Shown: positions 2,025 through 5,934 of the stretch, piece after piece | Layout: every line of letters begins with the position of its first letter | How positions within the stretch are numbered: the stretch's first letter is position 1 | IMG/VR virus record: IMGVR_UViG_2648501165_000019 | Origin: a virus | Taxonomy: Duplodnaviria; Heunggongvirae; Uroviricota; Caudoviricetes | Direction: 5' to 3' (one strand) | Length of the DNA: 12,448 bases | The notes under the pieces: generated by a model | What the model was told of the DNA's origin: nothing | Seen by the model: only the letters and a program-made list of their open reading frames with translations | Database searches by the model: none | Translations under genes and position numbers: made by a program

Positions 2025-2306
2025 TTACCGCCGCAGCCGTTCCGGCTTCTTCCAGTGGTACGTTATTTTTTCTTTCTCCCGATACAGTTCAACGCGGCGA
2101 TTGTAGGCCAGCATTTCAAGAACGCGGTTCCGTATGTTGCGCATATCAACGCCATTAAGTTCTATACCATCACGGCGCATCACTTCCGCTACAACACGCA
2201 CATAATTTTCAGCGGTCACGCTGTCCGGCTGTGTGGCCTGTTCGTCATGCTGCTGGCTGATTCCGGCGACGCGGCGGATTAATCCCAGTAGTTCGGCTTC
2301 TGTCAT
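2025..2306 (-). CDS. Hypothetical protein (93 aa), last gene of the packaging module
   Basis: ATG at 2306-2304 preceded by a GGGGG Shine-Dalgarno-like run 4 nt upstream; same orientation as terS. No family recognised. Confidence 0.5.
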   Translation of the reverse strand: MTEAELLGLIRRVAGISQQHDEQATQPDSVTAENYVRVVAEVMRRDGIELNGVDMRNIRNRVLEMLAYNRRVELYREKEKITYHWKKPERLRR

Positions 2307-2340
2307 TGTGCCCCCATCGCTCTGATAGTCTGGTGTCGTC

Positions 2341-2545
2341 GGGTCCTTCCTGGAATTATGGCCCGTTACGGGGCGGCGACCTCGCGGTTTTTATCTGTTT
2401 ATGAGAATTTTCCGGCAAAAGTCAGATCCGATCTTCTTCTCTGTAACAGACTGTTTAACAATGAAAATATTAAAAAAAAGAAAGGATCTGACACGAGGCA
2501 TTTTAGCCAGAAAATGCCATTATCAGATCCTTTCTCATTTTTGTT
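2341..2545 (+). other. cos site copy A: complete lambda-type cos with cosQ-like, cosN and cosB-like R3/R2/R1 elements
   Basis: 2341-2370 GGGTCCTTCCTGGAATTATGGCCCGTTACG resembles the lambda right end (GGGTCCTTTCCGGTGATCCGACAGGTTACG). 2371-2382 GGGCGGCGACCT is identical to the lambda 12-nt cohesive end. 2383-2420 CGCGGTTTTTATCTGTTTATGAGAATTTTCCGG parallels lambda CGCGGGTTTTCGCTATTTATGAAAATTTTCCGG. R-like repeats with a GATCC core in direct/inverted/direct order: 2423-2443, 2477-2498, 2524-2543. Inverted repeat GGCATTTTAGCCAGAAAATGCC at 2497-2518. Confidence 0.8.
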
Positions 2546-2562
2546 CAATAATTGCGCGTCTG

Positions 2563-3105
2563 TTACTCGCCTTTCTTCTGTAGCAACTTTTCCGGTACGT
2601 TTCCGGTTGTTTCTTTCAAGTAATCAGCCAGTATCTGTGGGAGGTTGTCGGCAACTCTGGCACTGGCATTACAGGCTTTAACCACTTCCCTTTTAAGCCT
2701 GTCCAGCATGGCGGGGGTAATCTGTGGGAAGCTCCTTTGCATAGTAAGCGGGAGGCTGTCCATGATTGATGAAATCTGACTCGCCAGCTTTGAAAGCGCG
2801 TACAGGCAAAACTCAGTATCAATCACGTCACCGCGATCGCGATCGTTTTTAAGTTCCTGCGCCTCTGCCTGTGCTGTCAGTAATCTGATCCTGACTCGTA
2901 AAAGTTCATCATCGTCAATCTCGCCTTTGTCGTTTATAAGCTGGCTAATTGCATTGTTAACCCTATTTTCTATCACGCTGGCAACATCATAAAACGCCTC
3001 ACGGCCTTTACGCTCAACGGGAGTTACTCCCCACTTGTCGAACGCTGTCGCACTTACACGGCAGCTTTTCGCCATGTTTTTTTTGTTCATCAGATGAGAT
3101 TTCAT
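2563..3105 (-). CDS. terS: Terminase small subunit, lambda Nu1-like (180 aa)
   Basis: Length and sequence parallel lambda Nu1 as recalled, for example RLLTAQAEAQELKNDRDRGDVIDTEFCLYALSKLASQISSIMDSLPLTMQRSFP versus lambda RLTRAQADAQELKNARDSAEVVETAFCTFVLSRIAGEIASILDGLPLSVQRRFP. Lies immediately downstream of cos copy B in the lambda cos-Nu1 arrangement. Start could be Met1 (3105) or Met6 (3090). Confidence 0.85.
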   Translation of the reverse strand: MKSHLMNKKNMAKSCRVSATAFDKWGVTPVERKGREAFYDVASVIENRVNNAISQLINDKGEIDDDELLRVRIRLLTAQAEAQELKNDRDRGDVIDTEFCLYALSKLASQISSIMDSLPLTMQRSFPQITPAMLDRLKREVVKACNASARVADNLPQILADYLKETTGNVPEKLLQKKGE

Positions 3106-3257
3106 TAATACACCAACTTAATTACTGCTTCAGGTTGGTGTATTGCTTGCATCTTTCCCTTTTCATTCATAAAGATAGATCAAACAACAAAACCACCACC
3201 CTGAAAAGGCTCATAAATAGCGAAAATCCGCGAGGTCGCCGCCCCGTAACGGGCCAT
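3106..3257 (-). other. cos site copy B (inverted relative to copy A): cosN plus a short, diverged cosB directly upstream of terS
   Basis: 3228-3257 is the exact reverse complement of 2358-2387 (30/30, ATGGCCCGTTACGGGGCGGCGACCTCGCGG); cosN on the minus strand is 3244-3233. Minus-strand continuation ATTTTCGCTATTTATGAG matches the lambda post-cosN sequence. Further toward terS the lambda-like R elements are replaced by GGTGGTGG (3200-3193), CACCAACC (3140-3133) and GTTGGTG (3117-3111). The position where cosQ would lie is occupied by N10 (3258-3267) and a terminator. Confidence 0.75.
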
Positions 3258-3267
3258 NNNNNNNNNN

Positions 3268-3290
3268 TAAAAAAGCCGGATTTCTCCGGC
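3268..3290 (-). terminator. Rho-independent terminator, copy 1 of a conserved hairpin family
   Basis: Minus strand reads GCCGGAGAAATCCGGC followed by TTTTTT: 6-bp GC-rich stem, GAAA loop, U-tract. Sits 7 nt after the stop of the 137-aa gene. Confidence 0.7.
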
Positions 3291-3296
3291 CTTGTC

Positions 3297-3710
3297 TCAG
3301 ATGGTTTTCAGTATGCGATCGATGTCGCCGTCATCGCCCTGGTTTCTGCCATCGTATGCCATGCCAGCTGATACGGCTTGCGGGCTGTGCATGTCCATAA
3401 AGTTTTCAAAGGCTGCGGTAAGTTCCGGCGCAACCTTCGGACGTTCCTGCTCTATGGTCATGCTAAGGATGCTTTTAGCCGTACCAACATCGATACAAGG
3501 CACGTTTGCCATTGCACGCAACAGCGGCTGATAGTCTTTATGCTCATGAAGCGCCATAATCGCATCAGCGCGCGGCTTGTCCTGCTCTTCCAGTTTGTTT
3601 AGTTGATATACGGCCTCATAGGTTGATAAACCTCTGTCAGCCATTGCCCGCGCTTCGACTTTAAATTTACTCGCCAGCGGTAGCGTCATGATGCTTTCAT
3701 TCGTTGCCAT
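3297..3710 (-). CDS. Hypothetical protein (137 aa) downstream of the decoration gene
   Basis: ATG at 3710-3708 with GGGGG Shine-Dalgarno-like run 4 nt upstream; acidic C-terminal region. No family recognised. Confidence 0.6.
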   Translation of the reverse strand: MATNESIMTLPLASKFKVEARAMADRGLSTYEAVYQLNKLEEQDKPRADAIMALHEHKDYQPLLRAMANVPCIDVGTAKSILSMTIEQERPKVAPELTAAFENFMDMHSPQAVSAGMAYDGRNQGDDGDIDRILKTI

Positions 3711-3722
3711 CGTTCCCCCTGC

Positions 3723-4058
3723 TTATCGGGCCAGCGGCTGAACGGATACGCCGGAACCCGCAAAGGCGGCGCATTTTTTCGCATCGGTGTCGACGCTCTC
3801 AGGCCAGTTAACGGCGGCAATATTGAATATCCCCGTCTTGTAACACTGTGCTGATTTCTGCTTTGACGTGTCCACAGGGTACGAGGTCAGATAAACAGCC
3901 TTGCCAGATTCCTGACCATCCCACGGCTTAAACTCGCCATTGTCTGCCAGCATCAGCGGGGTAAATTCCTGAATAACGCCAGCATCAGCGGCAAAATGTA
4001 CCAACGTCGTGGATACCTGCTGACTGCCTGCAAATAACTCAATGTATGGAGTGTCCAT
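3723..4058 (-). CDS. Head decoration protein, lambda gpD-like (111 aa)
   Basis: TPLMLADNGEFKPWDG, YKTGIFNIAAVNWPE and KKCAAFAGSGVSV parallel lambda gpD TPLMLDTSSRKLVAWDG, YKSGTFRYEDVLWPE and KKRTAFAGTAISIV (recalled). GGGGGG Shine-Dalgarno-like run upstream; start lies 13 nt after the capsid gene stop. Confidence 0.8.
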   Translation of the reverse strand: MDTPYIELFAGSQQVSTTLVHFAADAGVIQEFTPLMLADNGEFKPWDGQESGKAVYLTSYPVDTSKQKSAQCYKTGIFNIAAVNWPESVDTDAKKCAAFAGSGVSVQPLAR

Positions 4059-4070
4059 AGAATCCCCCCG

Positions 4071-5126
4071 TTAACCAATTTTGACGGTAACAAATTTGCG
4101 AATATCTGCCGGTACCGGCTGCGGTGCACTGTGTGTCTGCACGTACTCAATCGCCGGATCGCCGTCCTCAATCCAGTTTTTCGGGTAAAACATGTTTTGT
4201 GTTGCGCCCGTTCTTACCGCTTCCTGATCCATTATCGCACCATAGGCCACCAGCCCTTTATTGTTGGTGTTACCCAGGACCAGCAAATCAGGCTCAAGGA
4301 AATATTTTTCGGTACCATCGCTGTCAGTGTATTTGCCGGAATAGACGATAAGGGCCAGATCACCAAGATAGCCTTTAAAGCTCACCACTTCGCCCAGGTT
4401 TTTACAGGCCAGTTCGGCGGCGGATTCTGAACCACGGGAAAGATCGTACAGCTCACGGAATTTTTTAAAGCTGCGTAATGTGCGCCATACCTCAGCGCCC
4501 ATAATCATGACGTTTGCGGGGCAACCAGCCTGATCAGCATAAAGCTCGATGTCATAGATTGGGTCGTGCATGTCTTTATCCTGCTCGGACCATTTTTTAC
4601 CCTTGGCCTGCTCTATGATGCAGTTTTCCGGTATTTTCCAGTCGATTTCATAGCGTTCTATGCCTTCGCCCTCAATGATGTTTTTTCCGGTCGTTACCGC
4701 ATTCACCGCCAGCCATTCCACGCGTGCCTTAATGGCGTTTATCTGGCGGCGCATGTTGCCAGTAATCAGGCGCATACGGCGATAGGTAGGGTCGTTAAGC
4801 TGTGCCGGATCTTCTCCAGCCATGCGCATGATGGTTTTCGTTGGATCGATTTCGTGCTTTGGCTTCATGTAGCCAGGTTTGATTGTGCTGGTTTCGTACC
4901 CTTTATCGCGCTGAACCTGGCTACCCACCATAGGCGAACAAAACGCCGACATGGTGACTTCTTCAATGTCCAGGGTATCCAGCATGATGTTTTGCGTGCT
5001 GAATGTCGCCACGTTCGGGAAAAACAGCGTGGTAAACAGAGGGCTGAATTTAAAATCCGCAATATCCCCGCGATTCAGGTACATGAAAAGCTGGTTAGTG
5101 TTAAGTGCCGTTGCTTTGCCTGCCAT
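4071..5126 (-). CDS. Major capsid protein, lambda gpE-like (351 aa)
   Basis: Colinear similarity to lambda gpE over the whole length (recalled): PGYMKPKHEIDP vs PGYVKPKHEVNP; DPAQLNDPTYRRMR vs DPQNLADPAYRRRR; FKGYLGDLALIVYSGKYTD vs YKGMYGDVAIVVYSGQYVE; LLVLGNTNNKGLVAYGAIMD vs TMVLGNTQARGLRTYGCIQD; YPKNWIEDGDPAIEY vs YPKNWVTTGDPAREF. Confidence 0.9.
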   Translation of the reverse strand: MAGKATALNTNQLFMYLNRGDIADFKFSPLFTTLFFPNVATFSTQNIMLDTLDIEEVTMSAFCSPMVGSQVQRDKGYETSTIKPGYMKPKHEIDPTKTIMRMAGEDPAQLNDPTYRRMRLITGNMRRQINAIKARVEWLAVNAVTTGKNIIEGEGIERYEIDWKIPENCIIEQAKGKKWSEQDKDMHDPIYDIELYADQAGCPANVMIMGAEVWRTLRSFKKFRELYDLSRGSESAAELACKNLGEVVSFKGYLGDLALIVYSGKYTDSDGTEKYFLEPDLLVLGNTNNKGLVAYGAIMDQEAVRTGATQNMFYPKNWIEDGDPAIEYVQTHSAPQPVPADIRKFVTVKIG

Positions 5127-5365
5127 TATTCACCCCCATAATTTTTATGCATCCCAAGCGCCGCAAGTAAATAAGAGCGTACAAGTGAACCTATCGACGG
5201 CTCCGGCGTCATCAGCGGATCCAGTCCAGCCGCAACGCCAGCTTCATAGTTTTTTTTGTGGCGCTGCTTGAGCACCTCCACGATTTCGGGGCTTATGTAC
5301 ACCGAAACACCGCCTTTTTTCTCTTCAGCCATAGTAAGAAATTCCTCTTCGACTAAAAAAATCAT
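5126..5365 (-). CDS. Small hypothetical protein translationally coupled to the capsid gene (79 aa, or 68 aa from an alternative ATG at 5332)
   Basis: Its stop TAA overlaps the capsid ATG (TAATG). Neither candidate start has a strong ribosome-binding site, so the start is uncertain. No family recognised. Confidence 0.45.
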   Translation of the reverse strand: MIFLVEEEFLTMAEEKKGGVSVYISPEIVEVLKQRHKKNYEAGVAAGLDPLMTPEPSIGSLVRSYLLAALGMHKNYGGE

Positions 5366-5541: not shown

Positions 5542-5563
5542 AAAAAAGCCGGATTGCTCCGGC
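5542..5563 (-). terminator. Rho-independent terminator, copy 2 of the conserved hairpin family
   Basis: Minus strand GCCGGAGCAATCCGGC followed by TTTTTT; lies after the 74-aa gene. Confidence 0.7.
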
Positions 5564-5583
5564 TATGTGTGCTGTGTGCTGGC

Positions 5584-5808
5584 TCAGTCTCTGATCTCTT
5601 TCAGAAATTCTATCAATGCATCTATCTGTTCAGGATTTACCGCCAGCATTTCACCGGATAGAGCACATCTCACAAAACCATGCTGATCCTTTTCAATCAG
5701 TGCGCCCGTCTCCAGGAATGCGCGGTAATCATTGATGCTCATCGTCTCCATGTTGTCAGCATGGTATTTATCACGCTGTTTTAATATCTCATCAAATTTC
5801 ATCGGCAT
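5584..5808 (-). CDS. Hypothetical protein (74 aa)
   Basis: ATG at 5808-5806 with AGAGGA ribosome-binding site about 8 nt upstream; bracketed by terminator copies 3 and 2. No family recognised. Confidence 0.5.
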   Translation of the reverse strand: MPMKFDEILKQRDKYHADNMETMSINDYRAFLETGALIEKDQHGFVRCALSGEMLAVNPEQIDALIEFLKEIRD

Positions 5809-5903: not shown

Positions 5904-5926
5904 CAAAAAAAGCCGGATTTCTCCGG
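5904..5926 (-). terminator. Rho-independent terminator, copy 3 of the conserved hairpin family
   Basis: Minus strand GCCGGAGAAATCCGGC followed by TTTTTTT; lies 9 nt after the stop of the PerC-like gene. Confidence 0.7.
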
Positions 5927-5934
5927 CTGTTTGA

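Follow-up and report, generated by a model that had tools for sequence, protein, structure and literature searches.

Genetic organization of the island and its two unassigned genes

We analyzed a stretch of viral DNA of 12,448 nucleotides (nt) (IMG/VR record IMGVR_UViG_2648501165_000019; hereafter the window), and concentrated on two of its genes, coding for proteins of 137 and 93 amino acids (aa), which belong to a phage satellite. Bases 1–1461 of the window are the 3' part of phoQ, and the remainder is a phage-inducible chromosomal island (PICI) of approximately 11 kb. All called island genes lie on the minus strand; they encode an integrase, AlpA, a RepA-type helicase/primase, a single-stranded DNA-binding protein (SSB), PerC, a gpE-type capsid protein, a gpD-type decoration protein, the 137-aa protein, a Nu1-type small terminase subunit (TerS) and the 93-aa protein. 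The 137-aa gene (3297–3710, minus strand) starts 12 nt past the stop codon of the decoration gene and is preceded by the ribosome-binding site (RBS) AGGGGGA (3714–3720, minus strand), with a spacer of 3 nt to the ATG. The 93-aa gene (2025–2306, minus strand) follows terS and a copy of cos, and carries the RBS GGGGG at 2311–2315 (minus strand), 4 nt before the ATG. A preliminary description of the window, made from its letters alone, had given these coordinates, good RBSs and this gene context for both open reading frames (ORFs), all of which we confirmed; RefSeq annotates the same two coding sequences in identical islands.

Near-identical islands are carried in the phoQ-roxA interval of O157/O55 and other E. 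coli strains. In strain CFT073, the same phoQ-adjacent site is occupied by the model PICI EcCICFT073, whose elements are ordered as c1498, the capsid gene c1499, the decoration gene c1500, the 137-aa gene, cos, rppA, a second, inverted cos and the 93-aa gene. When the published cloning primers were placed on the CFT073 sequence, the 137-aa gene was identified as c1501 and the 93-aa gene as c1505, with which the corresponding window proteins share 97% and 88% identity, respectively. Judged by identity, synteny and the shared attachment site, both ORFs are orthologues of these EcCICFT073 genes. The window island belongs to the EcCICFT073 type of classical Gram-negative PICIs and keeps the same order (c1498-E-D-c1501-cos1-[rpp/terS]-cos2-c1505); the main difference lies in the cassette bounded by the inverted cos copies, where a full-length Nu1-type terS stands in place of rppA. 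Both c1501 and c1505 are known from previous experiments, in which they were handled as anonymous hypothetical ORFs.

The 137-aa gene was found in 596 of 5426 complete E. coli genomes, with an intact ORF in 591 of the 596, and pairwise dN/dS values between diverged copies range from 0.18 to 0.55. The 93-aa gene is present in 1567 of the same genomes, with pairwise dN/dS values of 0.08 to 0.54. The dN/dS values and genome counts thus indicate that both ORFs are real genes under purifying selection.

Neither protein matched a family in Pfam, NCBIfam (both at E values up to 0.1 or 1) or PADLOC, and PHROGs places the two in families of unknown function (phrog_1999 and phrog_1561). NCBI labels some homologues of the 137-aa protein as head-tail connectors; this assignment was rejected, as no connector family model matched in Pfam or NCBIfam.

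The 137-aa protein is related to the C-terminus of lambdoid gpC/Nu3

A first indication of the family of the 137-aa protein came from PHROGs, where residues 47–119 match positions 496–567 (of 583) of phrog_53, 'head maturation protease', with an E value of 6e-9. In tblastn searches of phage genomes (E value of 4e-5), the protein matched the 3' end of 'protease C / scaffolding Nu3' genes in E. coli lambdoid PhiR12 phages, as well as Gifsy-1 gpC. BLASTP against a gpC of 501 aa aligned residues 49–131 with gpC residues 416–493 (39% identity, E value of 3e-11), and gave a second, weaker match on the preceding repeat of the same gpC. Of the phage relatives identified, gpC from the CFT073 prophage located beside icd is the nearest, with 37% identity to the 137-aa protein.

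The matched region of phage gpC consists of tandem RIMA.EEAKGRE.LA..LA..P.MTVE.AR.IL units, followed by an F..FM..HSP.AV tail and an acidic end; in lambda C/Nu3 the repeat unit is present, and the tail only in degenerate form. The 137-aa protein displays two helical repeats of this kind (approximately residues 5–37 and 49–83; 'IMAL.E....LA..P...V..A..IL') and the F..FM..HSP.AV tail. Its repeats and tail pair with phage repeats 2 and 3 and the phage tail, and F101, M105, S109 and P110 are invariant; the 501-aa gpC type has three repeats and the island protein two. The alignment covers the full length of the 137-aa protein, N-terminal repeat included, and pairs it with the C-terminal ~135 residues of lambdoid gpC/Nu3. 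Indeed, when the profile of the 137-aa family was compared to gpC C-termini using hhalign, the relationship was recovered with a probability of 97.2% and an E value of 3.9e-11. In strain cq9, which carries a PICI of a distant lineage, a protein of 141 aa occupies the same position and shows the same motifs, at only 27–29% identity to the 137-aa protein.

The AlphaFold2 (AF2) model of the 137-aa protein is all-helical, with block-mean pLDDT values above 90 for residues ~11–80, lower values beyond this stretch and disorder at ~109–127. Neither a sequence search of the PDB nor a Foldseek search of the PDB with the AF2 model, which gave nothing under an E value of 0.3, identified a solved structure similar to it. 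The resemblance to the lambda Nu3/gpC C-terminus thus comprises the repeat unit, the C-terminal tail, the helical and acidic character and a gene location beside D- and E-type head genes. Taken together, these comparisons show the 137-aa protein to be, by homology, a putative stand-alone scaffolding protein of the Nu3 type, and its scaffold activity is predicted from this kinship. The statement of the preliminary description that neither ORF belongs to a recognisable family therefore holds for the 93-aa protein, and for both in Pfam, NCBIfam and PADLOC, but not for the 137-aa protein, which has the lambdoid gpC/Nu3 C-terminus as a homologue. Of the profile and structure-based searches that it had proposed, the former placed the 137-aa protein with gpC/Nu3, and the latter yielded no fold match for either protein.

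Capsid, decoration and Nu3-like genes diverge together

The two genes preceding the 137-aa gene encode the remaining shell components. The gpE-like major capsid gene (4071–5126, minus strand; Pfam Phage_cap_E, 5.5e-50) is the orthologue of c1499 and its product the presumed client of the scaffold; this product is 97% identical to c1499, 45% to the E protein of the helper prophage and 43% to lambda E. The gpD-like head decoration gene (3723–4058, minus strand; Pfam HDPD, 5e-18) is the orthologue of c1500, to which its product is 98% identical, with 44% identity to D of the helper prophage. Directly 3' of the 137-aa gene, a terminator-like hairpin with a U-run (3268–3295, minus strand; RNA fold of -14.1 kcal/mol, z of -4.0) closes the block just before cos1.

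Comparison of the three products with those of the icd-adjacent lambdoid prophage of CFT073 gave identities of 45% (E), 44% (D) and 37% (Nu3-like), and comparison with the cq9 lineage gave 64%, 50% and 29%, respectively. Within IMG/VR, 42 of the 48 loci of the E/D type carry E, D and the Nu3-like gene together. These data show that the capsid, decoration and Nu3-like genes form a co-diverging block of three genes that ends in a terminator, and this co-divergence suggests that the client of the 137-aa protein is the island's own capsid protein.

In lambda, the reported partners of Nu3 are the portal gpB, the protease gpC, the capsid protein gpE and Nu3 itself (PMC3224144). Lambda Nu3 is needed for prohead assembly to proceed correctly, and is removed prior to the packaging of DNA. 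By homology, we infer that the 137-aa protein is capable of self-association and of binding to a gpE-type capsid protein. In the mechanism that we propose, its Nu3-type repeats would self-associate and its tail would dock on the inner side of the gpE-like capsid protein that the island itself encodes, and possibly on the helper portal/protease initiator as well; island capsid subunits would then be chaperoned into proheads that employ the portal, protease and terminase of the helper. The preliminary description had proposed both ORFs as candidates for terminase- or portal-interacting factors. Given the Nu3 kinship of the 137-aa protein and the interaction of lambda Nu3 with the portal, contact with the portal is plausible for this protein; the 93-aa gene, in turn, is not specific to the packaging module, as it also ends PICIs that carry other packaging genes.

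The 93-aa gene is the last gene of several PICI architectures

The 93-aa protein is composed of an acidic, variable N-terminal half (pI 4.9) and a basic, conserved C-terminal half (pI 10.3) that terminates in the conserved motif Y.W(K/R)KPERLRR. Its AF2 model contains three helices, with a mean pLDDT of 73. HMMER searches of 1.84 billion representative sequences returned 39 matches, which comprise fragments and close relatives from enterobacteria, a few giant proteins of low complexity and a single homologue of 86 aa at 44% identity; no informative fusion was present among the 39, and a scan of genome contigs added one Shigella locus only. Two candidate relationships were tried and rejected, namely gpW, a head-tail joining protein that was considered in view of the location of the gene after terL in cf-PICIs and for which an hmmsearch lead (E value of 0.11) was reduced to a probability of 0.4% in hhalign, and a remnant of the TerL (large terminase) N-terminus, to which there is no similarity.

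In all loci examined, the 93-aa gene is the terminal gene next to the attachment site on the int-distal side, whatever gene precedes it. In 80 IMG/VR loci, the gene immediately upstream is TerS (30 loci), TerL of capsid-forming PICIs (cf-PICIs; 24), RppA (14), the Nu3-like gene (5), a protease-capsid fusion (5), SSB (1) or an unclassified gene (1). Islands of the E/D type thus carry it after TerS or Rpp, and cf-PICIs, including the prototype EcCIEDL933, after TerL with a gap of 13–14 nt; in one island that has a protease-capsid fusion gene, 2 nt separate it from the preceding DUF1441 gene, and elsewhere it stands directly after the fusion gene. Klebsiella cf-PICI-like elements code for homologues of 62–65 aa, located after terL and before int, in which the conserved tail is kept. 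Two further loci illustrate the range of contexts. In E. coli O121 RM8352 (L008; NZ_CP028110.1), a helper-embedded PICI sits inside a prophage terL, and the 93-aa homologue is its last gene, adjoining the interrupted terL. A minimal IMG/VR island of 7282 bases (L050) consists of int, primase, SSB and then the 93-aa gene, and is devoid of capsid and packaging genes.

Similarity upstream of the gene ends ~20 nt before the ATG when different architectures are compared, leaving the RBS alone conserved and the gene without a conserved promoter, which makes it probable that the 93-aa gene is expressed by read-through from the preceding late operon. A promoter scan identified no more sites than expected by chance. 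The inverted cos beside the 93-aa gene in the window is not a constant neighbor either, since it is missing in other architectures that carry the gene. We conclude that the 93-aa gene is a backbone gene of classical, helper-embedded and capsid-forming PICIs, and not a gene of the packaging module. Its terminal position across architectures points to a backbone function that is common to the islands and not tied to one type of terminase or capsid. With low confidence, we suggest that the 93-aa protein could be a late-made adaptor for something that the islands have in common, for instance a host factor, integrase/attP or the transactions of island DNA.

We also considered whether the 'hypothetical gene 1792' of the cf-PICI paper, whose mutation severely lowers transfer, could be a homologue of the 93-aa gene. 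Counting of locus tags from the capsid gene 1786 mapped it to a small ORF between HNH and terS, and this candidate was discarded.

Neither ORF is a counterpart of Rpp or FI

Published experiments on EcCICFT073 bear directly on the idea, put forward in the preliminary description, that the two proteins interfere with the helper. When each of c1499 to c1507 was expressed from pBAD18, lambda plaques were reduced by c1503 (rppA) only, and deletion of rppA alone restored lambda plating almost fully in an island with an intact c1501 (PMC6739421). As to strains designated 'c1501::tetA', the published primers place tetA immediately past the stop codon of c1501, leaving c1501 intact in those strains. 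Islands from which the two genes had been deleted were still transduced (PMC10460865). Together, the deletion and expression data indicate that both orthologues are dispensable for laboratory transfer and that neither of them alone blocks lambda, and a role in helper interference is thus not borne out.

Two specific counterparts, Rpp and lambda FI, had been named as examples, and neither was recovered. No PDB entry matched either ORF at E values up to 10, in a search in which the RppA query, used as a control, found RppC (6HLK) at 5e-31; although related islands encode Rpp (redirecting phage packaging protein; PDB 6HLK/6HN7), with its winged-helix N-domain and helical dimerisation domain, in this region, it shows no sequence likeness to either ORF, and the Rpp slot after cos1 is held by TerS in the window. 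BLASTP comparison to lambda FI, a DNA-packaging chaperone, was not significant, and there was no match to FI of the helper prophage. In lambda, FI lies between E and FII, and the island has no FII gene. By sequence, position and orthologue phenotypes, the two proteins are counterparts of neither Rpp nor FI.

Evaluation of alternative roles

Taking these results together, we propose with moderate confidence that the 137-aa protein is the Nu3-type scaffold of the shell block, that the 93-aa gene is a conserved terminal gene of the PICI backbone, and that neither is an Rpp or FI counterpart. Several observations weigh against this proposal. As regards homology, BLASTP of the 137-aa protein directly against lambda C/Nu3 was not significant, and no solved Nu3 structure exists for comparison. 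In lambdoid phages, Nu3 arises from an internal in-frame start within the protease gene, whereas the island version is a stand-alone ORF after the decoration gene, and no S49 protease gene is present among the island genes. The order E, D, Nu3-like also differs from that of lambda, the phage version standing before the two head genes, and identity to the nearest phage versions is only 37–39%. As regards function, the monomer-size DNA band is absent for EcCICFT073 with intact c1498–c1501, and packaging is described in full-size heads (PMC6092414); deletion of c1499 or c1500 left transfer and interference unchanged (PMC6092414); replacement of c1504–c1507 by cat still allowed transfer at ~1e6–1e7 per ml with lambda or phi80 (PMC10460865); and a rebuilt island in which c1498–c1501 were exchanged for melA and c1504–c1507 for cat retained packaging and transduction (PMC10460865). 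In 3 of the 48 E/D-type loci (L028, L039 and L048), most of the 137-aa gene is lost, leaving short N- and/or C-terminal remnants next to intact capsid, decoration, terS and 93-aa genes. As regards the 93-aa protein, no relative of known function was found in Pfam, NCBIfam, PADLOC or the PDB, Foldseek of its model against the PDB and BFVD gave nothing under an E value of 0.3, and the role suggested for it is a guess from position and charge. The shell block has no evident biological pay-off in EcCICFT073, where it is dispensable for transfer and where, with the block intact, the DNA still enters full-size heads.

Dispensability for EcCICFT073 transfer and interference would be readily accommodated if the E-D-Nu3 block were a functionless, slowly decaying remnant of a phage or of a capsid-forming ancestor. 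Such decay would also be in line with natural variation at the 137-aa gene, which some islands have mostly lost, shortened by an in-frame deletion or exchanged for an unrelated gene. A natural 93-aa in-frame deletion variant of the 137-aa protein (P0028) lacks exactly the stretch between the two Nu3 repeats; and in three other E/D-type loci, from a lineage whose decoration gene is 54% identical (L055, L057 and L092), the slot after the decoration gene holds an unrelated ORF of ~127 aa (about 5800–6180 of L055), which is not Nu3-like and, judged by eye, resembles an AlpA/MerR-type helix-turn-helix protein. However, the dN/dS values across lineages and the intact ORFs in almost all genomes carrying the 137-aa gene are at odds with decay, as are the retention of a 27–29% identical, still Nu3-like protein in the corresponding place of the distant cq9 lineage and the co-occurrence of E, D and Nu3-like genes in most E/D-type loci. 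We thus consider a mere remnant to be unlikely.

For the 93-aa protein, one may envisage a terminase-associated packaging accessory, either an analogue of FI or a co-factor of TerS/TerL, that is made with the preceding terminase or Rpp gene. The gene indeed lies directly after TerS, Rpp, DUF1441 or TerL in most architectures, with the short gaps given above for cf-PICI TerL and DUF1441; one Klebsiella element even has it overlapping TerL by 4 nt, and it would be expressed with the late operon. Nevertheless, the protein resembles neither FI nor gpW nor the N-terminus of TerL, and the gene is kept behind a protease-capsid fusion, a Nu3-like gene and even SSB, in an island without packaging genes. 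It is also conserved across helpers with unrelated terminases; moreover, packaging by lambda and phi80 remains efficient upon deletion of c1504–c1507, and pBAD18-c1505 had no effect on lambda. A role of this kind is therefore quite unlikely.

An alternative function for the 93-aa protein is control of recombination directionality or of int expression, in which this late basic protein would block re-integration or tune Int. It is suggested by the location of the gene, which always lies next to the attachment site, is followed directly by attP and int in matching orientation once the island is excised, and stands immediately upstream of int in packaged or circular cf-PICI-like genomes; by its presence in islands that share the int-alpA-pri backbone and nothing else; and by the basic C-terminal half of the protein. 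On the other hand, there is no similarity to known excisionases, AlpA already has a Xis/Vis-like role (PMC6092414), mutants deleted for c1504–c1507 still excise, transfer and integrate (PMC10460865), and linkage alone could explain the co-occurrence. We regard such a control function as rather improbable.

A further possibility, which extends our proposal and which we hold to be distinctly doubtful, is that the shell kit of classical PICIs builds satellite-specific heads on the portal, protease and terminase of a natural helper other than lambda or phi80, and that the 93-aa protein serves as a new backbone factor in all enterobacterial PICIs, in a role to which laboratory transfer assays are blind. 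If it were true, islands of the EcCICFT073 type would be a functional intermediate between capsid-stealing and capsid-forming PICIs.

Lastly, it is very unlikely that the 137-aa protein acts as an interference factor in the form of a dominant-negative decoy that lacks the protease domain and competes with helper gpC/Nu3 for the portal or capsid, spoiling prohead assembly or maturation of the helper: although its homology covers precisely the gpC segment shared with Nu3, with the S49 protease part missing, and although the published test with lambda may be non-cognate since the nearest phage relative is the gpC of the icd-adjacent CFT073 prophage and not that of lambda, pBAD18-c1501 left lambda plaques unreduced, removal of rppA alone restores lambda plating almost fully (PMC6739421), the prophage gpC tail is no more than 37% identical, and the protein diverges in step with the island capsid gene, as expected for a partner of the capsid and not for a mimic of the helper scaffold.

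Comparison with other satellites and implications

Among known satellites, SaPI CpmB (an internal scaffold), SaPIbov5 Ccm and P4 Sid (an external scaffold), for which no kinship in sequence is expected, are likewise head-assembly proteins that act with head parts of the helper, and SaPIbov5 Ccm provides a precedent for a satellite-borne homologue of a capsid protein (cited in PMC6092414). In contrast to the SaPI and P4 remodellers, no small capsids were seen for EcCICFT073 with the block intact, which gives no sign of size redirection. The cf-PICI EcCIEDL933 (L095; EDL933, NZ_CP008957.1, 1686234–1700260) occupies the same phoQ-roxA site as the window island and shares with it the backbone, the SSB-PerC segment and the terminal 93-aa gene, which directly follows terL. 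Both islands carry capsid shell genes of their own; cf-PICIs possess a full HK97-type set (capsid, protease, portal, connectors, HNH, TerS and TerL), whereas the window island has a lambda-type capsid, decoration protein, scaffold and TerS only.

In the literature on these PICIs, as far as it was covered by a limited search that is no proof of absence, c1501 is not assigned to the Nu3 family and c1505 is not noted as a shared end gene. The Nu3 assignment names a hypothetical gene of the best-studied Gram-negative PICI, and shows that genes for scaffold, capsid and cement proteins occur side by side in these islands, which have more than a stray capsid homologue. It also sharpens the question of why ~11% of complete E. 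coli genomes keep a shell kit that is dispensable for laboratory transfer. With the 93-aa gene, classical, helper-embedded and capsid-forming PICIs have one conserved gene in common, which could serve to mark the island boundary. Both assignments represent an ordinary gain in annotation and leave current models of satellite packaging unchanged.

Additional features of the island

The window contains two copies of cosN, which correspond to cos1 and cos2 of EcCICFT073 as described in PMC6739421. The copy in canonical orientation, upstream of terS (3233–3244, minus strand), is an exact match to GGGCGGCGACCT (chance expectation 0.04), and the second, inverted copy, also an exact lambda-type cosN, lies between terS and the 93-aa gene (2371–2382, plus strand). 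The TerS encoded in the place of rppA (2563–3105, minus strand; Pfam Phage_Nu1, 3e-23) is a full-length Nu1-type protein, 36% identical to lambda Nu1 over 180 aa and without similarity to RppA; a PDB sequence search with TerS gave chance matches only. The inverted cosN pair flanks terS in the window and rppA in EcCICFT073. The presence of the same pair around different genes indicates that the cos-bounded cassette has been swapped between Nu1-type TerS and Rpp; in the IMG/VR relatives, the cassette slot is occupied by TerS in 30 loci and by RppA in 14.

Upstream of the capsid gene, a small ORF (5126–5332, minus strand) is the orthologue of c1498, belongs to phrog_3255 (function unknown) and travels with the E-D-Nu3 block in IMG/VR loci. 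The ORF itself spans 5126–5365 (minus strand), within which RefSeq picks an internal ATG to give a product of 68 aa.

The hairpin that follows the 137-aa gene is one of three related GCCGGA-loop-TCCGGC hairpins with T-runs on the minus strand, located at 3268–3295, ~5547–5567 and ~5911–5931, which stand after the 137-aa gene, an ORF of 74 aa (5584–5808) and the PerC gene, respectively. They look like a reused terminator module that splits the late region into short units. The window also includes two runs of N, one of 13 bases near the phoQ-side end of the island (1637–1649) and one of 10 bases between the terminator hairpin and cos1 (3258–3267), whose counterparts in CFT073 can be read from the published primers and from locus L005.

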